A stretch of DNA of 62,316 nucleotides, counting the filler, from Porpidia crustulata (lineage: Eukaryota): NCBI GenBank assembly GCA_964255105.1. It is 16 parts of 16 records of this genome, joined end to end, with 100 filler letters (N's around TTAATTAATTAA, not from the genome) between each part and the next. Parts side by side here need not be neighbours in the genome. Positions count along the whole stretch, not along the records: positions 11,774 to 15,597 come from CAXUWE010002222.1; 15 more parts are not named here. One strand, 5' to 3'. Shown piece by piece: positions 3,826-58,381 of the stretch (within the stretch, counting starts at the first letter, position 1; each line of letters opens with the position of its first letter). The notes below the pieces were generated by a model. It saw only the letters and a program-made list of their open reading frames with translations. It made no database searches and was not told where the DNA came from. Position numbers and translations under genes: made by a program.

Positions 3826-3925
3826 NNNNNNNNNNNNNNNNNNNNNNNNNNNNNNNNNNNNNNNNNNNNTTAATTAATTAANNNNNNNNNNNNNNNNNNN
3901 NNNNNNNNNNNNNNNNNNNNNNNNN
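3826..3925. other. Artificial contig linker N44-TTAATTAATTAA-N44 (first of 15)
   Basis: Identical 100-nt spacers with stops in all six frames at 3826, 7750, 11674, 15598, 19520, 23437, 27352, 31255, 35150, 39039, 42923, 46806, 50686, 54564 and 58442. Intervening contig lengths never increase, falling from 3825 to 3775 nt, as expected for length-sorted unplaced contigs. Confidence 0.99.
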
Positions 3926-5745
3926 GGGTAGGCATATAGGTGGGATTGCGGGGTTGGCTGTTGGGGCTGTAAGTTCGCCGGATGTTGGAGATTCCGGTAC
4001 ATCGCTCCTGCTTGCTGTGGGAGCGGAGACGGGTAGTGAGTCGGTTTGTAAGCTTCTTCTCTTGACGTACGGTGTACTGGACCGGCAGGGTAGCCCATAG
4101 AGTTGTTTGCCGGACGACGGCCGATGGATTTTCGTGGAAAGGGTGGGGGCTGGTAGTCGGATGATGATGGTGATAGTGATGATGCTGATACTCTCAATCT
4201 CGCTTCATAGGCAGCTCGGACCTCTGGATCGAAGTAATCCAGATCTATCTCAGAAAGCTGACGAGGTTGTGCAGGCGGCGGAGGAGGCGCCCACTGGGCC
4301 GCTACTTGACGTCCACGAGGGCGCTTTTGTCTCCGATCACGCTCAGAAGGAATCTCGTCCGCAGGGTATCTGGGTTGCATCGATTCGCTAATCTTGCGAG
4401 CCACCTGCAAATTCGATAGTCCCGTAAAATCTTGTGCTGGCAACCTTGGCTGGTTCGCTCGGGTGCCTCGGCTCGGTTGTTGTGGCATCAACATGGACGA
4501 TAGAGGAACCATGGTTTTGGATGGCGGTGGAACCCTAATCGGAGGGATAGGAACGCTATAGTCGGCCGTAGGATCTGGTTGTGAAGCCTCATCAATGCAA
4601 GGCAGTTCACCATGCAAATCGTAAGGTCCACCTAGGTTCTTCTGTAAGTCAGGTGTGATAGGAGGCGGTAGCTGGGCTTGCACTGCCGGGGTCTTAGGCA
4701 GCTGGTTGTGACGAGGCACTGCGGGGGCTGGCAGGGTTTTGGTTGAAGTCTGGTTTGCGTTATTGGTTGTAGATCGGGAAGGCTCGCGGTGGTATCTGGA
4801 GAGAGGACTTGGACCAGGTCCGGGGAACTGGAGGTAATCATCCTCATCATCATCATCGTCGTCGTCCTCGTTGAAGTCATCAAGGTTGATGGGCGTGGCC
4901 GCTGTACTACCTGGAACAGCCAGGATCACGGCTGGATTGGCCGGCGCTCGAATTTGGTTTGGACGTGCAACTGATGCTTGCATCCGTGGCTCTCGGTTCT
5001 GAGCATCAATTGTGCGAGTTAATGCTAAATTCCTGATTGTCCCCTGAGGCGGAGGCTGCACCGAAGACGCATTGTTGTTGGGCTGCGGTTCTTGTCGAGA
5101 GCTGGGATCGCTGGAGGAGGCCACGGTGGTGGGATCTGTAAGATCTTGAACGGTGAAATTGGCTGAAAAGTCCTCAAAAGCTTCCAGTACCGAATCATTC
5201 GCATTATTCCTAGTCAATTCCCGCCACTCCTTCCGCTTCTTGCGGTTCCTCGCCCACGCCTCCCCTTGCTTACTTAATCTCGCCTCCGTCAATGATTGTT
5301 TCTTCGTCGGAGGTACCCACCACTCGTGCGAACGGGCTATGTGAATCAGCTTTTTCAGTAGTTCCGGATTGTGTATCTGCCGCGTCAAATGGCCTTTCAT
5401 GAGCGTGTAGTTGAATGTCCGATTAAATTGCTTTTGGAGTTTTTGGACGATGAGAGCGCAATACAGACCGCGGCTTTTCCACATGGCCATGAAGCTCAAT
5501 TCTTCGGTGCTGAAATTACGGTTAAAGTGGAACTGGGGTAAGACTTGGAAACGCGGTCGACGGGGGTTCCGTGCGGGGCCGGCGGCGATGTCTTGGACCA
5601 GCTTATTATGTGCGTTTCGATCATCATGTCCTTCTGTATTCATTAGGTCCTGGTCTGGGGAATTAGCTATTGTCATCGGGGCCTTCGGATTGCGGTCGAC
5701 ATTCGTGGGATAGGCTTCACCATTTTTCGCTGTGCTAGGGGCCAT
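3926..5745 (-). CDS. Hypothetical Pro/Gln-rich disordered protein with a possible N-terminal Myb/Clr5-like helical domain; 3' truncated
   Basis: Open frame of about 600 codons from ATG 5745 (MAPSTAKNG) to the contig edge. Contains FSTEELSFMAMWKSRGL..IVQKLQKQFNRTF, a basic RNRKKRKE stretch and a poly-Asp tract. Confidence 0.65.
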
Positions 5746-8700
5746 AGTATACAGAACTTGACGGCTGTGCAGATAAATTAATAAGTATGAAATAAAGAAC
5801 TTTTGAAGAAACCAAAAGGGTTTAAAAGGCACGAATGGACGTGTCGATAAGAGACTTGTAGTAGCAACATTCACATTCAACAAAACCAACTCGACACAAC
5901 TTCAGAGTGTTTGGCATTCCACGAGCATAGACCTCTTTGTATGATTTTGCTAGGAAACCCTATTCAAGTTAATTCACTTACCTCATCACCTTGTCCATAA
6001 CACTAGGTAGTATCCCTTTTTCAGTCATAGCGTTGAAGTCTGCGCCTCCATCTTCGCCCCCCATCCATGAGTTCTCGGGTAGGCTCTGAATCTTTCGTTC
6101 TCGTTGGAAAGATTATCCCCTTTGATATCTAGGGTAGGAAGATATGTTGCAAAAATTCCGGCTTTGCCACAGACAGTAGCCATGATGCAGGTCCAGCGAC
6201 TTCCAGTAAGATCCTGGATCAGGGTAAAGACTTCAATGCCAAACGCGGGTTGAGGGTTTTCCACAGCGGTATAAGTGCTATGGGAAGTGCCTTAGACAGC
6301 GGTTGCGTAGCTCTTTCAAGAGAGACTGCCCAATATATCGCCCGGGCCCACATTTCCCGAACACCACATGAATTCGTAGAAATCCAGGAAGAGTGGAATG
6401 ATGATCGTAATCTGTTTGTAAGTGTAATCCATTATTAATTTGACGACTACTTCAAACGTCAGTCATGAGGTCTCTCTCGAAGAATGATTACCTACAACAC
6501 CCACTGAAGCCGAGCATCATGACCAAGCCTGCTATAGAGGTAGGTACCGAGAAAGATATCGGGCAGAGCAATATCTCCAGTATTAGCTGATGCTAGCCTG
6601 TCCTGTGGGTATCACCTTTCGGGACCACGCTGAAGATTGGCCGGGGTAGAAGATGTTGCATATCCTCCTGGAATAGACTTAATGAGGACTTTTGATATCG
6701 TCATCATCGAGAACACTCCCTTGATCGTGATGCTATGAGAAGCGGTGGCTCGCCTACCTTCAACAACATTAAGAGCGACTACTGCAATCTTTCGCTCTGG
6801 ACAGTCGAAAGCCAAGTCAATGACAACTTGGTCCAGAATCTTGCCACAAGTAGACGTTAGGAACTCGGGTACTAACAGCAGGGATTTTCTGTTCTAGATA
6901 TTCTCTCTCGCGTGAGACGTTAGTCATTTTCCTATCGCGTTCAGCTTTGTATCTATCCGTGTGGACTATACAAGAAGGCTTACATCAGATTATTTTGATC
7001 TATAGAAATCTCACATGTGGTCTGTATGACAAGGATATAGCCAAAGAGTGACAAATACTGCTTGCAGAACGTCTGCTCTCAGATATTCTGCAACACTCTA
7101 GATCGCGCCATGCTGGGAAATGCTTAAGTCTGATGACATAAGTCCATCACAGCTGAAAGTAGAGCCGGAGCAGAACTGCAGGTAACAGGCTGCCAGCGCA
7201 AGACCATCAGTACAATCTAGGCAAGCGGTTGCCAGGCACACATACTAGTAAAAATTTCCGAGAGCGACCGAAGAAACTTCGTTCAGAGGGGCGGTCGGAT
7301 ATGAGGGCACTGTTACCGTATTTCGTTCACCAGGATATTCTTTGCAGAGCCTTGAACTTGAACGCCACAGCTGTCATTTTAGATCACCAAAAAAACCAAA
7401 TCATAAAGTTCTCCAAGAAGAAATCAATTAATCATCAAGACAACACAGAAACAAAACTTCAGAATCCTCAAAAAGCCCACATACTATCCGCCTATTCAAA
7501 ACGGAACACAACGACTTCATACGACTGCAGAGAAAAGATGCAGGAGAAATACAAAGAGACCTCAGCAACGCAGGATGTTGGGAACCTAAGTGATCGACAT
7601 GACACATGTGAGTGTGATTTTGATAGGGAATCACCATTGGCCTGCAATGTGAATACAGTACCATGATCCACTGGGCCAATTGAAGCAGCGCGGTCAGCGA
7701 TGAAACCCACCTGTACGCGGTGCTGGCTACGAACCTTCTGTTTATCAGANNNNNNNNNNNNNNNNNNNNNNNNNNNNNNNNNNNNNNNNNNNNTTAATTA
7801 ATTAANNNNNNNNNNNNNNNNNNNNNNNNNNNNNNNNNNNNNNNNNNNNACAAATCATAGAAATCCAAAATGAATCGATCCCCAATGCAAAAATCTCCCT
7901 TGGAAGAATCTCGCGTAGTTCAGGCAAGTACCTATCATTGAATTAGTATACATTTATGAGACCGTGGCGAGGTGGAGAAGCTGGGGTGGTTGCGTTGGGA
8001 TTGTTTGATGCTGCGGGGGCCGGGACGAGGGCGGGGTTGAGATGACCTGAATGGGGCGGAGCTGTATTGCGTTGGCGCTATAAGAATGACAGTGGATTCG
8101 ATGAATTCATGGAGGTGTAGGTGGATGGAGCGAGCAATAACTCATCAATTCATCCATTCATCTTCTCATCAGGGGATATGGGAGGATATAAAAAACGAAA
8201 TATAACCAAAACCTCAAAAAAACAACACCGAACATCCAAACCCTTCTCCCCAAAAAACCAATTCATCAACACCTCCACGTCAAAACCCAAACAAACTCCA
8301 AACCCGAAATCGCAGCCAGCCAGCCAACCGCCCCATCTAAACCCAAAGCCCCCGATGCAAAGAAATTAGAAAAAACGCTCAATTGTTGTATAGAACAGGG
8401 GAACGTAAAGATCCGTTCATCTATGTGTACGATAGTTCTCGAAGAAGGGGGTTGGAAGATGCATGGTGGCGGGATGGATAGTGTGGCTGCACGACGGACT
8501 CGAAGATTCGTTTTTACGGTAGAACATGGCATCGTTTGCGTCAGCTTCATCGTGCTTTCTTTCCATCATCGTACGGGTTTCTGATTAGCAGTTCTGCTTT
8601 GCGGAAGAGTTTGGTAAGACTAGATTCATGTCATTAATGTTAATTGGGTCGTTCATCTATCTACTGAGGCGTTGACAAGATTACTTTTTAACTTTAAATA

Positions 8701-9205
8701 CAACTGCAGTTCATCGTATCGAGGTTGCGGATGATATTGGAATGTTGTGAACCGAGGGTTCGTGCTGTGTATTAATTTCAGGAATGCTTATTCTGTCGAA
8801 CGGGGTTCGATTCTGTGTGTATGTGTTTGTAATTACTCATCAGCAAATCTTCAAACGTAAGACGATAAACACAATAATATTTATACAAACCACAAGGATG
8901 GACAACGGATATAAATCAAGAAGCTGACATCGATTGAAACGACTATAGGTTAAGGCAGCTGCAGGAATAGCCATTTACTCTTAAGCGCCTGTGAGTTATT
9001 TCATGACGTCTTCTTTACACGGAGGTTAGTCGGGGTGGTGTTGTGCATAAAAATCGTCTCTCTTTTGTCTTCGCGCTTTTTTTTATTTCTTTCTTTTTTC
9101 CTACCAACTCCATCAAAGCATTCTTTCCCTCCTTTTTTCCTTTTCCTCCCACCCCCAAAAAACCACCGGCATCTACTCCATTCCTAGGATTCACCGATCC
9201 CCACA

Positions 9206-9715
9206 ATGCAAATCCCCTCCCTCCTTACGAGATCCTTTCTCCTCCACGACCTCATCCCAGCTGCCCTAGCAGTAGCACCTGTCCCGCATATAGGAGAGCT
9301 AGCCGTCCCAAAACGCGAGGAGAGTGATCCATGCAGTCAGCTTGGCCGCCTCACTGACGGTGCCCTAGGCCCGATCTTTGGGAGAAAGAAGTGTCAGCAG
9401 TCATTTCAACTAGCAAGCCTGCCGTCCTGAAGGATCTGTCCGGCGGCGGTGACGGTCTTGATTGTGCTTTAAATAGTGCTCTCTGACAGAAGACTGCAGG
9501 CTCTGATTAAGCCTGTCGTTTCCCAGCGGCTATTGGGTCTTTTAAGTGGTTCGCTCGGCGCCATCGACGGTATTGTCTTTTGTCCGGGTGATGCTGCCAA
9601 AGGCGCTTCGTGCAACACTGGCAATTCGAAACGCCAGCTACTTTGCGGTGGGCTCGGCGGTGGGCTGAGTGGTCTTCTTGGTGATGGAGGAGGCTACAGA
9701 CTCTGCCATTTGAGG
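9206..9715 (+). pseudogene. Possible frameshifted secreted Gly/Leu-rich protein with KR dibasic sites
   Basis: Signal-like start MQIPSLLTRSFLL..AALAVAPVP..PKREE. Similar composition continues in two other frames (KDLSGGGDGLDCALN; NSKRQLLCGGLGGGLSGLLG). Confidence 0.3.
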
Positions 9716-11161
9716 TGTTTTTCCGATGGAGGAAGTGGAAGTGTTGTTAAGCTTTGTGTGATGGTGATAACGAGCGGTGTGAAAATACCAAAGTCATCGC
9801 ACACATTGACCTTTTGTTGTATTAGACCTCTTTGTTCAAGATATCTCCCCCGAGAATTGTTTTTTCGATTTACGAAGCATAACCGATCCTGCAAATCCCA
9901 CTCTTCATCTCCTACTTCTTCATCCTTGTGAAAATTTCTACTACTCCCACTCGTCAGGGACGTTGTGCAGTGCGTGCTAACTTCGAGATCTTTCTCCCTC
10001 CGTCCCTTCATTATTCTCCACAAGTAGCTGAAAATGACCGCAATAAGAACCTGGACCACAACAGCGACTCCTCCCCATTGACCCACAGCTGAGAAACTCT
10101 CTGCTTGAAGCCTGGCCGGTTGCAGTTGGTCTTTACTAGCCTCAGTGTAGATGATATTACCTACGAATGCGGTTAGGCTGAGCAATTGCGTCAGAAATTC
10201 CACAAGTTTGATCGCATTGATCTGCAATACTTCCTGCTGCAACACATAATCCTCGCTGCTGCCGAAGCATCTGTTCAACCATGTGCGTACTAATGGCCAG
10301 GGACGAAGTGTGAAAAAAGGTCTACGTACAACCTGCGGCAGCAGCTTTGGCTTTTCGAACGTAAAGAATGTGAGCAGGCCGAGAGCAAGGTAGGCCCACC
10401 ATGTGGTTATGCTACCCCATCGGGAATCTCCGTAATTTGGAGTGATCGTTTGATAGACATCGATCTCGCTTGGCGTACGGCCGATGTATGCTCGACTTGC
10501 GAAGCAGGAGTAGAGACACGAACTGTCAAGAGTCTCATTGACATTTCCGATTGAGCTCTGTGGCCGCTGTCCAGATACTAAGGCATGAAGTGATGTTTTC
10601 CAGGTAGGATTAAGAGGGACTGATTGATAATTACTTTGTGGGAGCGACTCAACGTGGAAACGTGGACAGATCTGAAAATGATGATTGACGTCGGTGTAAG
10701 TAATATTGTGAAAGACGTGGCCAACAGACAGTAAGATGATCCACAGAAGAAAGATCGGTTTACAGTTTGAAGCTCGAAATGTGTTGGACCAAGCTGCCAG
10801 TGGGAGTGCACCAGTGAGCGCTGCATTCAATATGTGGAAAGCCGCACCGAAGTCTGGCTCAAGGACGCCATTGCACGCCAAAAACAGGTGTTCCTGATCC
10901 CGGAAGCGCGATAGACTCACACAGGCTCTTAGTCTTAGGTATATCATATCTATCATTAGATATAAAGAGAACAGTCATATGGATAGCTGCGACGCCGGAG
11001 TAGGTCATTACAGAGGCTGCCGCGCCTGCTGTAAGCCACTCATGACCGCGAAACACTATAGCGAACACGAAGAGAAGATTGAAGATGTACTGTGGCGTAT
11101 ATGAATACTGACTGCTGAAGCGAAATTCACAGACCACCTCAGTTACTGTGACATTGTCGAT
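9694..11161 (-). pseudogene. Fungal multi-pass membrane protein, frameshifted (pseudogene or homopolymer error)
   Basis: ORF 10859..11215 (VCEFRFSSQYSYTPQYIF..WLTAGAAASVMTYSGVAAIH) joins ORF 9694..10956 (LACNGVLEPD..ESFSAVGQWGG) if one base of the A5 run at 10880..10884 is removed. No nearby in-frame ATG; ATC-GAC-AAT at 11161 sits where ATG might be expected. Confidence 0.6.
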
Positions 11162-11773
11162 CTCATAATGCAATGGTTGTTGCGCCGTTGAGGGATAAGG
11201 TTTGTGTGTACACACTGTTGAGGACGCTGTATATTAACAACCACAAAAAGACAAGAATATATATACCGTAGGTGATACTTTCTCTGAAGCCTCTCATCTT
11301 GAAGTGCAGGCGAAATTGAATCTTTGATCAACACGTCGTTCGTCCTCAAGTCTTTCTATAATGTAGCATCCGAGTCAAGATACAATGTCATCTGGTACCG
11401 TGTTCTCATCAAGGCTCTGTGCTTCGCGGACAGAGTCTTCGAGGCTTAAGCATTGTCCAAACTCTGCTCGAAAGGTGAAAACGCCTGCATTGCGCAGAAT
11501 GATGATCTGCCTGACTCTAGGGCGGATGCAACTGATCGATGATGTATAGCCTTCCTGGATCATGTTCTTCTGTACCCGTTCTCGATGTGCCTTGCAGCAA
11601 GGCTGGTCAGCTTTTCCCTAGAAGTATTCCCGGGCTCGTGCACGTTCCGGTCCCCTGCACACCCCACTTTACTNNNNNNNNNNNNNNNNNNNNNNNNNNN
11701 NNNNNNNNNNNNNNNNNTTAATTAATTAANNNNNNNNNNNNNNNNNNNNNNNNNNNNNNNNNNNNNNNNNNNN

Positions 11774-12268
11774 CCCTTGTGCTCCTCCCCTGCTCCTCCT
11801 GTGCTCCCCTCTGCTCCCTTAGTGCTCCCTCAAAGCGGCTCTACTCCCTTTCTCAAACAAAAACAGTAATTATCAATCCTAAGTTCAGGGTATATATAAT
11901 ATATATACATACAGCATCCTAATGTGTAATCGATCAATAATTACAGTGACGCTAATTTGCTCCTCCGCGAATGATCGTTCTTCTGCTTCCTCTTCACTCT
12001 TTCGTGATTCCTCTTTGCTCTTCATTTCTGTTATACTGCCTTTCCTTCACTCTCTCAGTGCTCTCCTCTGCTCCTTCCATATTCCCTCCATAATCCCTTT
12101 GGAGCGGTCCAGCTCCATTCTGAACACTCAAATAGTAACCACTAATTTCAAATTTGCAGCGTATACAGTTCTTATATTCACTGTGAGTTTAGGGTCGTTA
12201 ATCATCATTTTGCTCCTCGGAAGGGACGCTGCTATATTAAGTAGGAGCACAAGAAATTTGCGACAGTA
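11774..12268. repeat. Two related pyrimidine-rich repeat units with a degenerate TA-flanked inverted end (possible second MITE family)
   Basis: 11800-11877 resembles 12058-12146 (GTGCTC.CCTCTGCTCC..AGCGG..A.AGTAA..A..AAT). TACAGTGACGCTAATTTGCTCCT at 11942 imperfectly matches the reverse complement of 12243-12268 (TACTGTCGCAAATTTCTTGTGCTCCT), and the contig starts with CCCTTGTGCTCCT. Confidence 0.4.
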
Positions 12269-12311
12269 AACAAAGGGTGAAGCAGACATGGAGTATGGCC
12301 TGAGCAGCAGT

Positions 12312-12424
12312 GCAAACTAGAATCGCGGATGAACGAGCTGCGATCATCGACTCAGGAACCGCGAATTCGTTTTTGGTATCGCCTGCTCTCGTGGTGGATC
12401 TACGCTTCTCATAAAAATCTTCGC
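12312..12424 (+). pseudogene. Decayed duplicate of the 5' end of the sulfotransferase-HAD gene
   Basis: Aligns by eye to 13808..13919 (GCAAACTAGA.TCGC.GATG.ACGAGC..CGATCATCGACT..GGAACCGCGAAT..GGATCTACGCTTCTCAT), with mostly transitions and small indels. Confidence 0.9.
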
Positions 12425-12460
12425 ATTCAGGTTGGTCGTCACACTCACAGGCGTGTCGCT

Positions 12461-12593
12461 TACTCGTTCCCACCCCCAAACGGTCCGCACCCCCAAACGG
12501 TCCGCGCTAGTTAAGATTAGTCAATATAACCCTAACCCTACGCTTTAGCCCTAACCCCAGGTAGGGCGGACCGTTTGGGGGTAGGAACGAGTA
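12461..12593. mobile_element. MITE, pogo/Fot1-like, with telomeric-repeat core (copy 1)
   Basis: TA + 26-bp TIR CTCGTTCC(C/T)ACCCCCAAACGGTCCGC (1 mismatch between ends) + TA. A 17-bp subterminal direct repeat ACCCCCAAACGGTCCGC occurs twice at the left end. Internal TAACCCTAACCCTA..GCCCTAACCC. Confidence 0.85.
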
Positions 12594-13824
12594 CTAATAA
12601 GAATGCAAGGTCATTCTCCATAGAAATGAGCTGGCTGCGATAACGCGTAAGATCCCTCGAAAATCTCTGAGCTTCGTGCAGTATCGTTACCGGATTCCTC
12701 GGCTTGCCCCAAAGGTCATGTTCCAGCTGGTCCTCCAGCGCTGAAATTTGAACATCTGCATAAAATGTGACGTCGTTCCTGTTGGCGTTGATATATATCT
12801 AGTGGATTAGCAAAGAACAGGTGCCGTCGCATTTTATTCCAACAGTTCCACAGTGCTATTATCTCTCTAATGAGTCCGCGCAAAGCTTGGACGATCGTCT
12901 GGTTGAATATCTGGGTTGAAGATGACATTTGGATGGATGCTTCAACACACCTGAGCATAGCATCGCTAGTATTCACAGCATCCGTACCATTCTCTGCGTT
13001 CAACTCAATCCAGCTCGAAACTCACCTACCCAGATCACCTGTTGCAGGATCACAAAGCACAATTAGCGCACTTACGCGCCAACATCAGTGTGTCTGCAAC
13101 AGTCTGCGTTTGAACCACAACATCCCCCAAAATCGCTTGTTCCTTGTTTGGGTCCAAGCTATTGTGCATCTCTCATGCTCGAACAGAGCATCTACGCTTC
13201 TGGCAGAATGGTGGCTTCGCAGAATCTACATCTCTCTTTTCGGGAGGAGTCAAATGCAGCAAAGCTTACATAGTAGCTGCCAAACGTCTTCTGTAATCAT
13301 GAGAGACGAAGTGGGCTGAGTCATCGCGCTCTGACTGAGACAACTATATTTCTTCATGCGCTGAGCCCTATCGCGCTAGTGCTCTATAAGGAGGTTTGGG
13401 AGGTTTGGTCGTAACAATAACTTTCTAATAACAACATTGAATATCAATGCAATCAATTTCATATCTGATCCGTCAACAACGATTGTGTTTCTTGTTTCTG
13501 CAGAAGGCTACCTTATTTGTTCCACCATCGTTTTTTTCAGGAAGCCCTTTCCGCGCCAATTCCTAGGAGTGAACAACATCCATCCAGCTCGGTGTGAAGC
13601 ATCTTACTAGAGTTCCGTAGTCACTTGTTTGCCACGGCTAGCTACCTGCTGTCATGGCCTCGTTATGTATTAGGCAAAAACCTAAGCACCTTGAGGTCTT
13701 CTGGGCGAATTGTCCCACTCATATACTTTACACCGTGCCCTCTTTAAGCTCTCTCCAATTTCAAGTTGTCCAGCAAGACCGATGTGTTACGTCTATTCCA
13801 GACACACGCAAACTAGAGTCGCAG

Positions 13825-15357
13825 ATGGACGAGCCACGATCATCGACTGGGGAACCGCGAATCCGATTTTTGGTCGCCTGCCCTCGTAGCGGATCTACGC
13901 TTCTCATGAGAATCTTTGCTGAGTCCGCTTTCTGCGCAGTTACCAGCCGACCGTTGTTGATGGGCAAAGCGGACTCGACAGAAGGTTTCAGTCCTGACTA
14001 TTCAATCCTCGAGGATCCTTCCCATCATAGCGCCTTCATCAGTGCGTTTAAATCAGGGAAGCAGTTTCTCATATGCAAAGAGGAGCTCGGGAACGACAGT
14101 CGAAAGGGCGAATGTCTATACAATGTGTGCCCTAATCCCTCTACGTATACGATGACTCGACCGATCTTCCTGTTCCGCGACCCTATTCGGGTCTTCGACA
14201 GCTGGAAAAATGTTGGATGGACAGATGCACAGAGCCTGATTGATTGTTACATCAACATGTTTCACATGCTCGCTCAAGCTCCTTCCCCTGCCGTGTCGTG
14301 CCTTGTCTATGAGCGGCTCATTCGAAAACCCGAGACAGAAATCGAATGCATTTGTGCACGATGGGGAATCCCATTCTCCGAGAGCATACTCAAATTTGAC
14401 CATCCGTTTGCATCTGCATTCACTTTTTCGAGTGACCGCGAGAGAGACATCTACTGCGAGAAGAAACCTCTCGGCCTTTTCAAAAATGTGGAAACAGGTT
14501 CTAGTTTTGAACCAGACGTGCCATATCACAATCTGCTGTCCAATGCTGGGAAGGACCATATTGAGGAACACGTTGGCTTTCTATATGTTCGTTGTTGGGA
14601 GGATGATATCCTGCGATTACGGGCTATCCTTACTGAGAGAACCTGGATTGGCTTTGATCTCGACGACACATTACACGAATTTCGTCGCAGCTCTGGGATA
14701 CCCACTAATAGAGTTCTCGCAGAGATCTCTAAACGACATGGTATCCCTATACCTGCATTAAAAGACGAGTACTCTAAGGTTCTTAAGCTGAAGACGGCGA
14801 ATGCTTTTTCAGATGGAAAGACGTCATTTGATTATCGGAGAGAAAGGTTCGCTTCAGTTCTAACTCACTTGTCCTTGCCACAGGACGATCATTTCATATC
14901 TAAACTTCTTGAGCTAAATGGAGCCAATCTTACAGCGTCACTCGAGCTTAAGTGTGGAGCATTAGACTTATTATCACTAATCAAGGATATGGACAAAAAA
15001 ATTGTCGTCATCACAGAAGGCCCACAAGACGCACAAGAGAGAGCAGTTCGTGGCCTTGGCATTGATGGATTCATCGACTTCCTCGCCACTACCGCCAATT
15101 TTGGGGTAGCCAAGACCGATGGCCTATCTCCTCGAGTCTTGGACCATTTAGGCGTTACTGCAGACGACATGGCATACATCGGTGATAACGAGGAGCGAGA
15201 TATGAAACCTGCTCTTATGGAAGGTATCTTTTCAATCCATCTTGCCGAGATGAAGCATGTTTCTTTCAATACCATCCCACCTAAGATCAACACGTTGAGG
15301 AAACTACAGTATATCCTTTCCAACGACCGCTGTCCATCACCCGTCACGAAATCTTGA
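13825..15357 (+). CDS. Sulfotransferase-family domain fused to a HAD-superfamily hydrolase; intronless
   Basis: 5'-PSB loop FLVACPRSGSTLL, 3'-PB motif IFLFRDPIRVFDSW, and LVYERLIRKPETEIECIC..GIPF. HAD motifs I (FDLDDTL), II (ITEG), III (K in GVAKTDG) and IV (YIGDNEERDM). The frame is open from 13654; Met 13825 is the likelier start. Confidence 0.88.
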   Translation: MDEPRSSTGEPRIRFLVACPRSGSTLLMRIFAESAFCAVTSRPLLMGKADSTEGFSPDYSILEDPSHHSAFISAFKSGKQFLICKEELGNDSRKGECLYNVCPNPSTYTMTRPIFLFRDPIRVFDSWKNVGWTDAQSLIDCYINMFHMLAQAPSPAVSCLVYERLIRKPETEIECICARWGIPFSESILKFDHPFASAFTFSSDRERDIYCEKKPLGLFKNVETGSSFEPDVPYHNLLSNAGKDHIEEHVGFLYVRCWEDDILRLRAILTERTWIGFDLDDTLHEFRRSSGIPTNRVLAEISKRHGIPIPALKDEYSKVLKLKTANAFSDGKTSFDYRRERFASVLTHLSLPQDDHFISKLLELNGANLTASLELKCGALDLLSLIKDMDKKIVVITEGPQDAQERAVRGLGIDGFIDFLATTANFGVAKTDGLSPRVLDHLGVTADDMAYIGDNEERDMKPALMEGIFSIHLAEMKHVSFNTIPPKINTLRKLQYILSNDRCPSPVTKS

Positions 15358-16196
15358 AGTAGCACACTTTCGGAGGGATAATCTCGGTCAACTTCAATTT
15401 CAGACGTTTGGTTCAGTGTCTTGCAGGTCGAATTTCAACGGAAATTTCACGAGGCCTGGAATTTAGGCAAGGACTGAGCCTGAAGCAATTGGAAAAGCAC
15501 AGTTGGGCAGCTTTATGCAGAATGTCAACAATCTCAAAGCAAGAGGTTTTAGCCGGTAGGCTCTCTCATACTGCTCCTCTCTTTTGCCTCTCTGCTCNNN
15601 NNNNNNNNNNNNNNNNNNNNNNNNNNNNNNNNNNNNNNNNNTTAATTAATTAANNNNNNNNNNNNNNNNNNNNNNNNNNNNNNNNNNNNNNNNNNNNGTA
15701 TATGGGAATGTGATGAAGGAGGGGTGTGGAGGGGACTATGAGATGAGCAGGGGATTGAGCAATTGGGTTTTAAGTTTGAAGAGGGAGGATTTGGATGACG
15801 TTGTGAGGAGGACTTTGGGGCAGGATTAATTTGAAGGAGCGAAGTAGACGCGGATATTTTGTGTGTGGGTGAGAACGCGTTTGATTTGAGATGGTTATGA
15901 TGCTGTGCTGGTTGGCATCCTCACTTTTAAATTTTAACATTTGAATTACAGATTCAACCTGATCGTATTGACCGGTACTTGTCTTGACCATGTAATATGG
16001 CTGCTTCAAGACTTCTACTTGGGAGAGTGCTGCCTAACGTCATATACGTTCGCTTGCACGGCTGAGTTAGAGTTAGGCATCTAAGTTGGCTTACAAAGGG
16101 GAAGAGGCCTCATCTTGTATCCACGCCCACTACAGATCGAACTGTACCGAGCTTTCAGCTTTTCTACAAGTAAATTATATACAATTCAATGTCCAG

Positions 16197-17949
16197 ATGT
16201 TTCAATCCTACTGTGAAAGATCTATCGACTCAATAATCTTCTATCCAGCCAAGAATGATACCAACGGGCTCAAAGGTATCGAGATCGCGTTGAAAGGCGC
16301 GGCTAAGAAGTCATGTGTTGAAGAGTGCCAACTTGACGATACGACCATATTAGATTGGCTTCACAAGGTCTGCCGTCATCGAAGATTACACGCGGTAACT
16401 GCTAAATCGTAAAGGATGTCGGACGTGATGACGGTCCAGATAATACGGGTGGCCTCCGACTGATGTATTTCAAAATTCCCATCTACTATGAGTCCAGCCC
16501 TGAGCAATTGATGAACTGAGATAGAACACAGCGTGGCTGGTCGAACAAAGCAATCTAATCTGTTTGACCAAATCCCTTTCTCCGAGGCAACGTTCAAGGC
16601 TATCGCGGACGAGTTCGATCTTCCTTCTGTCTACCCAGCTACTTTATCCACCAAATTACCTCATTACGCTCATATCGAGTCCAGGAACCAACACGGGGCC
16701 GTTCTATCTTGTGGGTCTGCTTATTTGTCTCTCTGTGTACCTATTAATTTACAGCACGTAGCATTCATATCCCGCACTTTCTCATTCCGACGAGCAGGCC
16801 ATGCGCTAGCATTGACTTACAATGCACAAACAAAGATTACTTCTGCAATCATCCAAGGTCCAAGAGACCCTCAGTACTACGGCCAGTTGAGTGGGTATCT
16901 CAAAGAGCGGGCGGATCTGGCGACTCATCCAGCATTTCTACTTCTCTGTGCTGCCCAGCTTGAATACGAGACGACGGATGAAAATTATCTACCTCTCAGG
17001 GATGACATGATCGTTATCGAGAAGTGGACGGGACACGGATCGCTGATTAGCAGGAGCAATAGCAAGAATCTCGACTTGTTTCAGGACCTGCCCGCCCTCA
17101 CGAGAGATTTGAATTTGTTCTCTTCGAAGGTGATTGGAGAGACGGAGAGGGTGAAGTCATGTTTGCTTCGCCACGATTGCATAATCGAATTTATTGACAA
17201 TGTCGATAAGCCGATCTCATCTCAAGGCCAGCAGAGTAACTATTCCGGGGAAAGCACCAACGAAGTGATGTCTCTTCCACACCAGAAGGGTGATCGGGCT
17301 AGGCAGAGCGCAGAATTAAGACAGCATGCCGAATTTCTTGCCAACGGATGGAAGTGTATACTCCACAGATATGAGGCCTTTGAGAAGAACATACAAGTGC
17401 AATTGGCCGTAGTAAGTGACACTACTCGCGTAGAACGGCCGCAGTGCTAACGCGCACTTCAGCTTTACAATACTAGCATTCAGCGAGACAGCAAGCTGAA
17501 CTTGGATATTGCAAGGTCGTCCGCGAGTATCGCCGCAGCGACCAAGCGCGACGGCTCTGTCATGAAAAGCATATCGCTATTGACGATGCTTTTCCTCCCC
17601 GCGACCTTTGTTTCTGTATGCAGTTCATGTCTCCTTGACCAATGAGCTGTACAGAGTTTCTCAGAGAAACAGAGTTGCATGCTTCTTGATTTAGGAAGTG
17701 TGGCTAACAGATCGTTAATAGACATTGTTCGCCATGCCTTTATTCAATTGGGACGCCGATCGAATCTCTGCCATCGGAACGCCCCACGCGTGGATGTATC
17801 TCGCGGTTACTCTTCCGCTAACCATTACCATCGTCGCTCTGTGGCTCGCCTGGCTGCGGTGGAACCGCCCACAACGACAAAGAGACGATCGTGGGAAGGC
17901 GCGAGAGAGTACGCTCTACGCTGAACAAGACGGGAAGAAGACGGCTTGA
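16197..17949 (+). CDS. Fungal CorA-like (2 C-terminal TM) protein; multi-exon
   Basis: C-terminus SIAAATKRDGSVMKSISLLTMLFLPATFVS/TLFAMPLFNW..WMYLAVTLPLT. GT-AG introns begin near 16368, 16464, 16711, 17412 and 17617 (boundaries approximate). Confidence 0.8.
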
Positions 17950-33051: not shown

Positions 33052-34943
33052 TTAGCCATTGATCCTTTGCTGAGCAGGTCTTGCGGCAAAATTTCCGAGA
33101 TTGCCAAACAGGCCAGATTCCTTTGGAGAGCTTGGGCTGCCATGTGGCTTAGAGGAAGGCCCAACCTCGCAATCTGCGGAACCCCAAGGCGAAGGAATTA
33201 CAGCTTTCTCAACAGACGAGTTCCCAAGACTTCTACCGTCAATGTCGACTGCTTCTGCGAAAATCCATGGCCTGTATCCTGCAGAAACATAGATGGTTTC
33301 GAAGCCTGCCCGTGAAGCGTTCCCGATGAGCAAAAACCTTCTTGATGGCTCTGTCGATGAATAGATGTTCCAAGAGACCACCTCCGTAGCCCCGTTCCAG
33401 CTGACGTAGGCGACGGTGGTGATGCTGTCACACGACGTCCCGAACCCAAAGGCTTTCAATGCAGGTTTGCTGTCGGGTAAACCCGTAAAGTTGGATTTGT
33501 AGGCACGATAGCTTGCGAAACCACGGGCTGTAAGTTTTGCTTCTAGAATGCATTGACCATCCGGAGTGAACTCGCTCAGATACGCGTCCTTACTCCAGCA
33601 CACAAAGGCATTATCATTTGGTAGGATCTGGACGTTGCCTCGAATGTATGTCAATCCCTGATCAGGTCTATCCCATTGTTTCAGGACGGTGGCAACCATA
33701 GCTGAAGGTGAGGTGTCGAGAGCTACCACCAGCGCAGAGGAGTACGCTGCCGTTGGGTTGTGGGTTCCATTAGCAGCGTTATTGAATAATGAGATGACTG
33801 TCATCGTGTTATTTCCATCTATAAACCTTGCATCGTGCTGGGACGAGAAGTTAAAATTATTGAGATGGAAAGTGGACATTTTCCCTCCCAATCGCCAGAT
33901 GATACTACCATCGGAACCAGAGACTTTGTAAATAGTATGAGTATCTCTTCCGGAGACAAGATAATCTCCATTGGCATCTTTGTCCACAGAGTTCATGTGA
34001 CTGAGCGTTTAGTGCAAGTCTTGTTAACGTTGGGACAGACTTACATGTAATCCCATTTTACATCTGGAGCGCCCCATCCATTCGGCGGTTCTTCGTAGCT
34101 TTCAGAGAGAGGTATGTGATCTTCCGTACTCCAATGGAATCTCACTTCATTTGACGAGACATCTATATCCCGAAAACTGTTGTAGACGACCCATCCGTTG
34201 TAAGCCTTATCCACGTCAATTGAGTAGAATTTGGCCTGACGTGCAATGATCAAGGCGGAATTTCCGTCTTGAAGAATATTAAATTCGTGCATGTCGAACG
34301 TCTCTGGTTCTTTGAACACGGGAACCGTCTGCTGTACAGCGTATGAGCTTTTTAGAACCACGCCTACGCCCTCTGGAAATTCATTGCTGATATATTCGTA
34401 TTCGGGAAGGTCCGGCCAGATTTGGAAATTATGGGGCGCCCGACAGAGAATAAAAGACAATTGTGATGTAGCCTCAGAAGATACAACTCGAAAGTCGCTG
34501 ATGATTCGTCTAGGAAACAAAGAAGTTCCGCTCCAGACTAGGTTCTAGATAAGTGATAAGTCCAAGGCCTACAATGGAGAGGTTCTGATAGTACTCCAGA
34601 ATTGTCATAGATGTGCGGGCCGACCTGCGGGGTTTGCAGCATCCTCCTTATGTCGAAGGTAGGATCTAATATGTCGTTGTAAAAAGCGATGAACCAATAT
34701 CCAGGACTTATGAGAGAAGCGTTGTAGCTGTTGACCTCAAACTGAGGAGGTCGAATATCGGGTCGCTGAACTACACCGTTAGTTTATTGTATCAGAAGAG
34801 CAAAATTTTCAACCGAGCTTTCCATAACATAGTAACAGACTCACGGACACAAAAGTCTCAAGTCCTTGAGAAAACTCCCTAGCAGAAACAAAGTGCTGGA
34901 TGAGGAGAGCTCCGCACAGTACTCCTAGCAGTCGATTCATCAT
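33052..34943 (-). CDS. Secreted arylsulfotransferase (ASST-like, PAPS-independent); multi-exon
   Basis: Signal peptide MMNRLLGVLCG; FVS/RPDIRPP; PGYWF; GPHIYDNSG; ELVWSG; DMHEF; WDY/HMNSVDKDANGDYLVSGR..IIWRLGG; SQHDARF; GNVQILPN; SYRAYK; YVSWNGATEV. Confidence 0.9.
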
Positions 34944-55560: not shown

Positions 55561-56890
55561 TGGAGGTTTTTCTACTTTGAAGGCCCCCTTCTCTATACCA
55601 ATCTGATTGTCCGCCACCAGCAAAAGCCCTAAATGTCCTGCTTTGGTTTCGTTGGGAGGAGCAAGAGAATGGACTACACCACGCATTCATCTGGCGATGA
55701 CTCAGATGGACTGATCAACGGAACTTGATCATCCATGCTGGAAACGGTAGAATTTGAGGCGTGATGGAATGGTAATTATAAAAACATAAAAGTTCAACAG
55801 ATGGTCAGGCTCAGTAAGGTCGCCTTGTAATCATATATCGATATTTGTAACGCGTAAACAGCGGCGGACTTAAAATGAGAGGAGAATCGGTAATGAAAAG
55901 GACATTGCGGTCCCCAATCAAGACAACGCAGCGCAAAGATAGTACGAGAATTGTTGAACGCCAAGGTCAAAAGCCTATCTCCTACATCACAGGACTATAT
56001 CGGCGACGGCTTCGCGGTAACAGCTAGCACCTACTCATTCTCAAATTTATGAACCTCAGAACTTTTCTTGTTCACAGCCGACAAACAATCAAACCATTGG
56101 AATCGCGTTTGCCCCTGAGACACGCAAAGCGTGTCGAAGGCGTGCGTAGCTCATAGAGCCCGAAGCATAACCATTTGGACATCAAGTCGCTTTGACTAAC
56201 AGGATGAGTGCGACTAGGCCAAGAGTGTCACTTATGGATGGCAGGGCCTTTCTCAAGGTATGAGTGGGAACAGCCTAGGCACCAAGGAGGTTCCAAGCCA
56301 ACATTATGAGCGTCAGGGTGGGGCTGAGGGAGAGGGAGAGGGAAAAGGAGGATATGGAGGCGTTGGTCGGATTCGGCAACCATCCACCCATCTACATGTG
56401 GAATCATTTCCGCTCTATGGTAAATATTGGGATCATCGTGGAGCAGGGTAATGCGGAATGAGTACTCTACTGCCTTACCGCTCGCTTGAAGGAAAAAAAG
56501 ATACATTCAATCCTCAAGACACCCCTGGAAGCCCCGCTACATTAGGCTTTCCTACCGCCTAAATCCAACGTTGCACGTAGCTTTAGGTAGCAAAGCCCCC
56601 TAAACAAGCGAGATTTCTGGGCAAGGGCCAAGGGTGGGGTGTACCGTTTATTTCCATTTACCTGCTTACTTACCTCACCAACTCACCCCGGTCGCTGACA
56701 ACCCACCAGGCCGCTTACCGCACCTATGGGCTATCGTCACAGTCTGTCTCACAATCAGCCCTGAAGGGGGGAAACACAAATCGATCCTTGGTGCAGTAAT
56801 AATCAACACAGACTACTCAAGGGCAGCTTTCACTTGGACGCTGACCATGCAACTTGTCACATAATCTGCAGTAAGCCACTGCCGCCCGTC

Positions 56891-58381
56891 ATGGCTGTCG
56901 CTACCAAGAAGCGCTCTCTGTCCGACATGCAAGATCTTGGACTTTCTTCAAATGAAGCAAACCAACAATTCGGCCTAGAGGACAATTACAGAATGATGGT
57001 CTTACAATTTGAGAACGGCCTGTCCGAGGAGGATGTCGACAAACATTTCCTCCGAATGGCTCTGAACCTTGGCATTCATGTTCCACAAGACCCAAAGACT
57101 ACTCTGGATATTGTGACCAGCAACGTCGGCAAACTCACCTTGGCCTCGACGTCTATAGAATCTCAACCGGCTCTTTCTCAGTCCTCCCAGTCATTCCATC
57201 CTCCGTCAGATAGTTCTAGCGAGCAGCAATATCCTACAAAAACGTCATCGATCACCACCGCCTCTATCGCCTCCGTCACATCCTCGTTCGATGTTGCAAG
57301 TTCGCGCAAACCCTCTTACCAGCTTATTAAACAAGGGATTCGACGACTTTCGACATTGCGGAGACGGAGGACAATCGACGCACCGATTCACCATCTACCT
57401 CCGTATATATCGTCCTCTTCGTTCTCAATCCCATCTTCCCATACCCGTTCGATAAGCACAGACCCAATTCAGATCCCTATAATTCTCAGAAAGCCTGTTG
57501 CGCTTCCGTCGTACCGTGCGCCTCCAAAGAGAGATATTCCAAGTCTACCAGATCGGGCAAAGGAGGATCGAGAAGCCCTTGCTGCATCTCAGCGAAGCCT
57601 GCACAATATCCGATTACAAAGACTTAGGACCACCCAGCTGGCAGAGCAATCCCGATTTACTCGATTCGAAATAGACCAATATCGTTTGATGCGGTTGAAA
57701 CAGACGGAGATAAAGGAGGGCGCCATGAAACGGTACAGGATCCGAGAACATACCGCTCAAGAAAAACACATCGAAGCCCTAACCTCCCTCGAGAACCGTC
57801 ACCTCTCCGCCGAAGTCGACCTCTGCCGAACCCTCCAGCTGGAGAAACAAGCCTGCGAAACCCGCCTGCGGCACATGGAAGCCTACTGCAACCCGAAATC
57901 CAAAGTGGACGGCATGCCCAACCGCGTCGTCACCCGCAGGGACTACCACCAGCTAACGCAGCAATACCACGCCCACAACGGCATGGACAACCTCCACGCC
58001 GCCCGCATCAACGTCCTCCGCGAGAAGCAAGCGAAACAACTCGAACGCATCTCCGCCAAGCAAGACCTCGAACTCGACGCCCTCGCCGCCGACCTCGAGG
58101 CCGAAAACGCAGCGCTCGACGCAAAACTCCAATCCGACGCCGAAAGCCTACAGACCGAATTCTCGGACCGTAAACGCCGCCTCGTGGCGCGCTGGTTCCT
58201 CGCCGAAGCCATCGAGCGGCGCAAACTCGAAAACGAAACCGGACAGATATACGGCCCGTTGCCCGCGCTGGAATGGCCGGACGGTACGAGGGAGAGGGGG
58301 AAGGTCGAGGATGAGACGTTGGAGGGTTTTGCGCGGGACGCACTCATGGCGTACGATGCCGCGACGTTAGGCATGATATGA
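56891..58381 (+). CDS. Fungal hypothetical protein with a coiled-coil C-terminus; intronless
   Basis: 496-codon frame from MAVATKKRS, containing LENRHLSAEVDL..RLRHMEAYC..HAARINVLREKQAKQLE..RLVARW.LAEAIERRKLE. Confidence 0.8.
   Translation: MAVATKKRSLSDMQDLGLSSNEANQQFGLEDNYRMMVLQFENGLSEEDVDKHFLRMALNLGIHVPQDPKTTLDIVTSNVGKLTLASTSIESQPALSQSSQSFHPPSDSSSEQQYPTKTSSITTASIASVTSSFDVASSRKPSYQLIKQGIRRLSTLRRRRTIDAPIHHLPPYISSSSFSIPSSHTRSISTDPIQIPIILRKPVALPSYRAPPKRDIPSLPDRAKEDREALAASQRSLHNIRLQRLRTTQLAEQSRFTRFEIDQYRLMRLKQTEIKEGAMKRYRIREHTAQEKHIEALTSLENRHLSAEVDLCRTLQLEKQACETRLRHMEAYCNPKSKVDGMPNRVVTRRDYHQLTQQYHAHNGMDNLHAARINVLREKQAKQLERISAKQDLELDALAADLEAENAALDAKLQSDAESLQTEFSDRKRRLVARWFLAEAIERRKLENETGQIYGPLPALEWPDGTRERGKVEDETLEGFARDALMAYDAATLGMI

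Follow-up and report, generated by a model that had tools for sequence, protein, structure and literature searches.

The DNA analysed here, a window of 62,316 nucleotides from the assembly GCA_964255105.1 of Porpidia crustulata, carries at positions 13825 to 15357 a gene that joins a sulfotransferase (ST) of the type using 3'-phosphoadenosine 5'-phosphosulfate (PAPS) to a HAD phosphatase. Sequence comparison places this gene in a real, uncharacterised family of ascomycete two-domain fusions with an atypical ST active site. At four prokaryote-type loci the ST and HAD subfamilies that are fused in fungi lie side by side as two genes, ordered as in the fusion, an arrangement newly noted here. The fungal fusion probably descends from this bacterial two-gene pair, and one fusion of the pair would be the simplest account of its origin. 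The features of the gene, all on the + strand, are as follows.

13825 to 15357, +: intronless open reading frame (ORF) of the ST-HAD fusion, 510 residues, a single uninterrupted frame, single copy in the genome.
13654 to 13824, +: upstream in-frame extension of 57 codons from an earlier ATG, probably untranslated.
13858 to 14598, +: PAPS-type ST domain, residues ~12 to 258, with a TPST/CurM-like fold (Pfam and fold searches).
13879 to 13905, +: 5'-phosphosulfate-binding (PSB) loop CPRSGSTLL, residues 19 to 27, including R21 (sequence).
13942 to 13950, +: T40-S41-R42, where TPST-type enzymes carry the catalytic Glu (residue counting and conservation).
14077 to 14085, +: K85-E86-E87, a candidate catalytic Lys and a putative relocated base (conservation).
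14176 to 14202, +: 3'-phosphate-binding (3'PB) motif RDPIRVFDS, R118 to S126 (sequence; 56 of 62 alignment rows).
14638 to 15318, +: HAD phosphatase with a helical C1 cap, YjjG/YfnB/NANP-like (Pfam, profile and fold matches).

Both halves of the protein are recognised by Pfam, the N-terminal one as Sulfotransfer_3 (PF13469; 34.1 bits against a cut-off of 27) and the C-terminal one as HAD_2 (41.1 bits, cut-off 23.8) and Hydrolase (40.0 bits, cut-off 26.4). An AlphaFold model of the two-domain protein has a predicted local distance difference test (pLDDT) score of 90.2 and a predicted template modelling (pTM) score of 0.89, and suggests a fixed mutual arrangement of the ST and HAD domains. Pfam, motifs and model agree with what an earlier reading of this DNA, made from the sequence only, had described, namely one polypeptide carrying intact PAPS-binding motifs followed by a HAD domain with all four catalytic motifs. 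Folded alone, the ST domain reaches a pLDDT of 93.1. In a fold search it is matched by TPST1/2 and an olefin-synthase ST (Z 16.7 to 17.3, root-mean-square deviation 3.2 to 3.7 over 213 to 215 residues), and the top 21 rows are all sulfotransferase-fold entries; Foldseek places the CurM ST first (4gbm, E 6e-8), with STs in all top rows, and 6 of the 7 protein language-model neighbours shown bear sulfotransferase names. The sequence-only reading had named a best score as a nucleotide kinase among the outcomes that would refute it. The best kinase in the fold search reaches Z 9.6 against 17.3 for STs, and on the predicted structure the N-terminal domain is a sulfotransferase-fold protein and not a nucleotide kinase. 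A Walker A lysine (GxxGxGK[ST]), sought in the ST loop, is absent, the loop reading CPRSGST instead; the pattern xPRSG[ST]x is retained in 47 of the 62 rows of alignment A1 (47/58 counting ungapped rows). PF00685 (Sulfotransfer_1) remains below its cut-off (14.9 against 22 bits), and inspection of the ST domain found no GxxG, the beginning of the GxxGxxK motif of cytosolic SULTs.

The HAD domain carries the motifs DLDDT (D278, D280), T397, K430 and GDNEERD (D454, D459), which are retained in 59 to 62 of the 62 alignment rows, with the helical cap lying between motifs I and II. By profile and fold it is closest to YjjG, YfnB, NANP and PH1655, its score with the YjjG nucleotidase model TIGR02254 being below the cut-off (58.8 against 159.9 bits). 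It belongs to a HAD subfamily of its own, recognisable by the signature LDDTLH..F.DG...YR.ER..TEGP.DAQ and distributed in fungi, bacteria and Micrarchaeota; in the latter two, members stand alone at 31-39% identity. Known models of phosphatases acting on 3'-phosphoadenosine 5'-phosphate (PAP) gave no match to the query protein (P0001). VmHAD, considered as a relative, is a dehalogenase-type HAD and unrelated, to judge from the available part of its description (PMC12733955). Members of the subfamily were also seen in Solirubrobacterales, in a HAD-GNAT acetyltransferase fusion (L002:7425-9221) and a HAD-GrpB fusion (L003:7950-9188), and at three loci (L004, L005, L006; 3300-8800) immediately following Prim-Pol and VapE-like genes, with transposases nearby, as apparent cargo of alphaproteobacterial integrative elements.

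Upstream, the reading frame continues without a stop as far as an in-frame ATG at 13654, which would give an alternative form of 567 residues. The start of the gene is likely at 13825, since the alignment with homologues begins at about residue 10 of the 510-residue form and the homologues do not share the extension; its 57 residues are unlike the longer N-termini of homologues P0011, P0018 and P0043. The ratio of nonsynonymous to synonymous substitution rates (dN/dS), calculated against the related locus L093, is 0.57 for the extension, 0.39 for the ST domain and 0.23 for the HAD domain, values that indicate purifying selection on both domains. The absence of introns, also claimed from the sequence, holds: the single frame is colinear with 61 homologues, and uninterrupted ORFs of 528 residues are present at 7 of the 8 related DNA loci L085-L092. 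A contig from a public sequencing run is identical over the gene; the run may itself be the source of the assembly. Base composition was considered as a sign of foreign origin and does not mark the gene out (GC 0.47; GC at third codon positions, GC3, 0.48, with four other genes at GC3 0.50-0.77).

The atypical feature of the ST lies on the acceptor side of its active site. TPST1 relies for catalysis on R79, E100, K159 and S286 (according to the accessible part of PMC5562738), which puts the base 21 residues after the loop Arg. In the family described here the residue 21 positions after the PSB Arg is Arg in 22/22 scorable prokaryote-type rows (23 given) and in 43/46 scorable fungal rows (62 given), and it is Glu in four of five scorable outgroup STs. 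Sequence searches for a TPST alignment across the base position returned nothing useful, and an acid at the TPST Glu position is absent in either register, the residue being Arg without gaps and Ser by hhalign. Conservation from bacteria to fungi extends to K85, E86, E87, G89, E96 and C97, with K85 present in 26/26 prokaryote-type and 53/62 fungal rows and E87 in 25/26 and 58/62, respectively. This conserved Lys-Glu-Glu may supply the catalytic base. In the fungal enzyme FgSULT1, K99 and H101 are used in a K99-x-H101 arrangement (PMC7690957, in the part available), and by analogy of spacing E87 could take the place of the catalytic His.

The prokaryotic relatives were collected by a profile search of 1.84 billion representatives and a second search, which together yielded about 25 ST relatives standing alone or in other fusions, one of them named as an alphaproteobacterial metagenome-assembled genome. 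At all four distinct loci fetched for the close prokaryote-type ST family, an ST gene is followed directly by a HAD gene of the same subfamily on the same strand. At L082 (genome G152) the two are 16 bases apart; L116 (genome G301, of the same family as G152) has ST then HAD, 62% and 54% identical to those of L082, in wholly different flanks; at L083 the distance is 21 bases; and at L084 the pair is frameshifted. The pair is rare: with the ST profile it was found in 2 of 401 genomes of a class sample, a near-identical resample giving those two again, and the profile matched two of three genomes in the family and order of the hits and 0/401 in a phylum sample. Viral contigs, plasmids and phages were searched for relatives and gave none. 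Two distant Glu-type STs, L094 and L095, were left out of the family counts, and neither has a HAD beside it; at these loci (5660-9990) the ST lies near carbamoyltransferase, superoxide dismutase and ribose isomerase genes, in AT-rich, phage-like gene strings. A complex prediction for the separate ST and HAD of L082 scored 0.33, against a mark of 0.34 and 0.43 for one control. A role of the bacterial proteins as secreted effectors, suggested by their basic C-terminal tails and by a weak BID-domain match upstream in L082, is unsupported by the second locus.

In a quick ST tree, the 43 fungal-type rows cluster as a single clade (SH-aLRT 99) on a long stem, which meets the prokaryote-type rows at an unresolved fork; P0143, labelled fungal, groups with the latter. 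The HAD tree places all 27 fused rows in one clade (94) together with nine HAD-only proteins, and this clade sits inside the subfamily that contains the HADs of L082 and L083. The gene may have been acquired horizontally, as suggested earlier: a bacterial origin is probable, and the fungal ST clade stands beside prokaryote-type STs.

The two families also occur in other combinations. The same ST family is fused in P0239 to a HAD outside this subfamily and, in P0311, P0312 and the partial P0310, stands behind a Nudix domain that is MutT-like and contains a Nudix box; the HAD of the fungal fusion and that of P0239 both score best with YjjG/CTE7 nucleotidase-like models. Conversely, P0291 combines, in this order, a different, Glu-type ST, an FGE-like domain and a HAD of the same subfamily, and in a Micrarchaeia genome (L007:7986-8870) a HAD of the subfamily is followed by a 43-residue stump of a P0291-type ST. 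By our count an ST and a phosphohydrolase have thus been joined at least four times, a recurrence that speaks for their being connected in function via a phosphorylated compound.

In fungi, a word-seeded protein search scored 8000 candidates and found 253 proteins at E ≤0.001. The species-named matches, 41 among the best 120 of the 253, are all from filamentous ascomycetes, among them Sclerotinia, Oculimacula, Monosporascus, Xylaria, Colletotrichum, Beauveria, Chaetomium, Gaeumannomyces, Xanthomendoza, Letrouitia and Aulographum. Full-length fusions are 85 to 46% identical to the query and bear source names that are merely HAD-like or hypothetical. By these matches, the ST-HAD fusion is a widespread though patchy family of filamentous ascomycetes and is not unique to this genome, so that of the novelty first suspected the lack of characterisation stands (no paper was found in the literature covered) and the rarity does not. 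In a tree of 35 fungal proteins the query groups with Letrouitia and others (SH-aLRT 99). Forced monophyly of the seven Xylariales rows is rejected by the approximately unbiased (AU) test (p-AU 5e-9), and that of Leotiomycetes (p 0.17), Hypocreales (0.09) and Lecanoromycetes (0.44) is not; on these trees the conflict reflects either hidden paralogy or fungus-to-fungus transfer, which are indistinguishable here.

Signs of decay are frequent in the fungal family. Close relatives are frameshifted, by 2-base deletions in L093 and in L091 (one of the eight loci L085-L092) and by one base in the contig of run X5. Of 164 highly conserved sites, the query itself differs from the consensus at 10, including A293P, Y365N and E242G; eight of these departures are within the HAD domain and none is within a catalytic motif. 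Within L085-L091, the dN/dS of the ST ranges from 0.15 to 0.46. A census of motif retention started from 92 proteins spanning both domains, of which 23 without the first motif were set aside and 69 were scored at 13 chosen residues: 46 keep all 13, 17 have an altered ST with an intact HAD, three show the reverse and three are altered in both. As judged from this decay of ST motifs (17 against 3) and from the frameshifted relatives, the ST-HAD gene is an accessory gene, often decaying in fungi. The suggestion that it is accessory is thereby borne out, and the term "self-contained sulfation module", used in the same earlier reading, is too strong, HAD motifs being often retained where those of the ST have decayed.

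As for function, it is slightly more probable than the contrary that the two domains are coupled on one phosphorylated metabolite, in either order. The form of coupling that we favour, with a probability of about 0.35, is that sulfation by the ST comes first, on an acceptor that is phosphorylated and probably nucleotide-like, and that the HAD takes off the phosphate afterwards. According to this model, a bacterial gene pair, ST then HAD, would have entered the filamentous ascomycetes once and become fused, giving a cytosolic product. The ST domain, as its motifs and fold suggest, would bind PAPS, the supply of which is provided for by a host APS kinase, and would transfer sulfate to a hydroxyl of an acceptor still bearing its phosphate, likeliest a nucleoside monophosphate or a similar small phospho-metabolite. 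Arg42 would hold the anionic acceptor and Glu87 (or Glu86 or Glu96) would act as the base. The HAD would then strip the phosphate, making the step one-way and releasing the sulfated product, and in prokaryotes the fused Nudix domain may cut a di- or triphosphate to provide the monophosphate. Removal of phosphate makes the step one-way in the trehalose- and sucrose-phosphate synthase/phosphatase pairs as well. Sulfation first is favoured because it accounts for most of the features, namely Arg42, the Nudix domain and a HAD acting as finishing step; the order proposed at the outset, dephosphorylation and then sulfation, is possible, and the opposite one explains more of the anatomy. A bolder extension, which we regard as unlikely, is that the family represents a new catalytic class of ST acting on nucleotides (at the ribose, or at the phosphate to give a phospho-sulfate), Nudix-fed and HAD-finished, whose sulfated nucleosides would be an unrecognised metabolite, signal or detoxification product and whose bacterial gene pair would have been captured by fungi as a single fused gene and handed on as accessory cargo.

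Several observations weigh against sulfation followed by dephosphorylation. Most prokaryotic members of the HAD subfamily lack this ST as a partner: the ST was not matched in any of five incomplete prokaryote genomes carrying the HAD subfamily, a comparison with no positive control. No recurring pathway genes were found beside the ST/HAD pair at the loci examined. HADs of the subfamily frequently have mobile genes next to them or are joined to GNAT or GrpB domains, and the Nudix-ST fusion is one clade of three sequences, hence one event. When aligned with the Glu-type ST P0291 by hhalign, S41 and not R42 stands opposite the Glu, a register shift of one, and Arg42 could instead bind the sulfuryl group or a carboxylate. 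The preponderance of altered STs with intact HADs in the census, taken with the HAD-only proteins in the fungal clade, implies that the HAD is useful without the ST, and the pairing of the HAD subfamily with a Glu-type ST fits a generic removal of PAP better.

In a phosphate-to-sulfate swap, Nudix and HAD would take a nucleotide-like compound, such as a toxic nucleoside analogue or a pterin phosphate, down to its free alcohol, and a sulfate cap added by the ST would block re-phosphorylation. Such a swap would draw on enzymes of house-cleaning type, as YjjG-like HADs and MutT-like Nudix enzymes are, and a HAD acting first would be useful alone, in keeping with the 17 to 3 asymmetry and the HAD-only relatives; it is nevertheless unlikely, as it leaves the conserved acceptor-side Arg unexplained and no recurring transporter or resistance genes were found at the loci examined. 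Doubtful, too, is the destruction in cis of PAP, the inhibitory by-product, by the HAD while the ST sulfates an unrelated acceptor. That the HAD subfamily pairs with two ST families, PAPS/PAP being the common factor, and that the ST family acquired two different HADs speak for it. This proposal, part of the sequence-only reading, is weakened by a host Met22/Hal2 that would make it redundant (TIGR01330, 405.7 bits against a cut-off of 267), by the known PAP phosphatases in the literature matches, which belong to other families, by the retention of the HAD where the ST is damaged, and by the acceptor-site Arg and the Nudix partner, both of which it leaves unexplained; a Nudix enzyme needs an anhydride bond, which PAP lacks.

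The domains might also be uncoupled in fungi, the HAD serving as a broad house-cleaning nucleotidase and the ST being a passenger left from the transferred pair and on the way to loss in many lineages, perhaps here. The 17/69 fusions with decayed STs, the frameshifts in L093, L091 and the run-X5 contig and the query's departures at 10/164 conserved sites would be in line with this, yet the dN/dS of the ST (0.39 against L093 and 0.15 to 0.46 within L085-L091), the acceptor-site residues common to bacteria and fungi and the position of the departures, 8/10 in the HAD and none in a catalytic motif, make such a passenger quite improbable. It is very unlikely that the N-terminal domain, its ST fold notwithstanding, transfers phosphate or merely binds 3',5'-bisphosphate nucleotides, so as to make up, in an architecture like that of polynucleotide kinase-phosphatase, a pair of kinase or sensor with phosphatase. 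In its favour, the domain has neither the TPST-type Glu nor the SULT-type His, phosphoryl chemistry might be served by the additional Arg and several acids, and the partners are nucleotide hydrolases, but both motifs, 5'PSB as well as 3'PB, are intact with no Walker A lysine, kinases appear only from Z 9.6 down, below 21 ST-fold matches, and the language-model neighbours point the same way (6/7 sulfotransferases by name). Sulfation of a phosphorylated acceptor followed by removal of the phosphate is the reading retained here.

The genomic surroundings of the gene are limited to its contig, on which the following features were found.

11774 to 15597, no strand: the real contig (G000:C2222), 3824 bp; everything beyond it is joined through artificial linkers.
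12461 to 12593, no strand: a multicopy miniature inverted-repeat transposable element (MITE) of 133 bp, with TA at both ends and 28-nt inverted arms that are 96% complementary.
12312 to 12453, +: a decayed, frameshifted partial duplicate of the 5' end of the ST-HAD gene, ~86% identical.

The window consists of ~3.8-kb pieces of falling length joined by N44-TTAATTAATTAA-N44 linkers about every 3.9 kb (3826-3925, 7750-7849, 11674-11773, 15598-15697 and onward), so that gene order across the linkers is not biological and the genuine gene context is 3.8 kb only. Since the ST-HAD gene is alone on its 3824-bp contig, the other genes of the window are not its neighbours; in the contrast drawn earlier with other genes "here", the intronless gene stands and the linkage falls, the window joining unrelated contigs. 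The MITEs and decayed sequence reported near the gene are present as one MITE, with 93 match rows spread over dozens of this genome's contigs, and directly before it a single degraded duplicate of the 5' end of the ST-HAD gene, spanning its first ~140 bases. A second short repeat family, CTGCTCC-rich, is found at both ends of the contig (11786-11911 and 15554-15597), as well as in L093 and in many contigs of related runs. Elsewhere in the window, 33055-34008 (-) encodes a PAPS-independent arylsulfotransferase (ASST; Arylsulfotran_2, 113.9 bits), 30% identical to an ASST in L093; its linkage to the ST-HAD gene is ruled out, the two being on separate contigs. In L093 an ASST gene lies ~1.7 kb upstream of the ST-HAD homologue, with a cytidylyltransferase-like frame on the other strand between them, and the region L093:2313-11474 (ASST, cytidylyltransferase-like frame, frameshifted ST-HAD, membrane-protein-like frame) is a possible sulfation cluster, in one instance. 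In L085 the ST-HAD gene is adjoined by RTG2 and not by an ASST, so there is no conserved ASST/ST-HAD cluster. Three further frames of the window, 3877-5901 (-; 675 residues), 56765-58381 (+; 538 residues) and 16515-17450 (+; 311 residues), have no Pfam match at E 0.1.

Fungal PAPS sulfotransferases are so far represented by three characterised enzymes, all aryl SULTs of PF00685, and for most sulfated metabolites of fungi the responsible enzyme has yet to be identified, according to the available parts of the two reports (PMC7690957; PMC11677658). A survey of 174 fungal proteins deals, in the portion at hand, with PF00685 only and recovers two clusters, one fungal SULT cluster being likewise nested among bacteria (PMC11677658). 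The ST-HAD family falls outside the existing PF00685 surveys, has a different acceptor site and carries a built-in phosphatase traceable to bacterial pairs; under the bolder reading above, it would add to the fungal PAPS sulfotransferases a third lineage, separate in structure, and an ST for phosphorylated acceptors would mean new chemistry and a possible biocatalyst. The protein is small and soluble and offers two clean knock-out residues (R21 and D278), which makes the question directly testable.

Among known systems, the fungal cytosolic SULTs FgSULT1, HwSULT and AsSULT (PF00685), in the parts of their descriptions available (PMC7690957; PMC11677658), resemble the query in being fungal, soluble and equipped with PAPS motifs; the query differs from the FgSULT1 type in scoring below the PF00685 cut-off, in having neither the catalytic His nor GxxGxxK and in having a phosphatase. 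TPST1/2 (5wri, 3ap3, 8w5z) and the CurM/olefin-synthase STs (4gbm, 4gox) share with it the fold, the PRSG[ST]T loop with its Arg, RDP..S and the Lys after strand 3, but identity is 12-19%, Thr-Ser-Arg replaces their catalytic Glu, and the query has no membrane anchor or polyketide context and is fused to a HAD. The C1-cap HADs YjjG, YfnB, NANP and PH1655 have the same four motifs and helical cap and are the best profile and fold matches, whereas the query HAD lies below the YjjG cut-off, in a separate subfamily. For a published paper on a fungal sulfotransferase-HAD fusion, the literature search, which covered few subscription journals, found none, and no sulfotransferase version of the transferase-HAD phosphatase pairs was found in the published literature. 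The trehalose-6-P and sucrose-6-P synthase/phosphatase pairs resemble the ST-HAD protein in the proposed logic and in domain order, and use glycosyltransferases; a cyclase joined to a HAD phosphatase in drimenol synthesis reportedly follows a comparable logic. In T4-type polynucleotide kinase-phosphatase a P-loop-fold domain precedes a HAD, and from it the query is set apart by ST motifs and fold, a capped C1 HAD and the lack of a Walker A lysine. The PAP phosphatases Met22/Hal2 and CysQ, finally, fill the role proposed for the HAD in PAP clean-up, with an unrelated fold.

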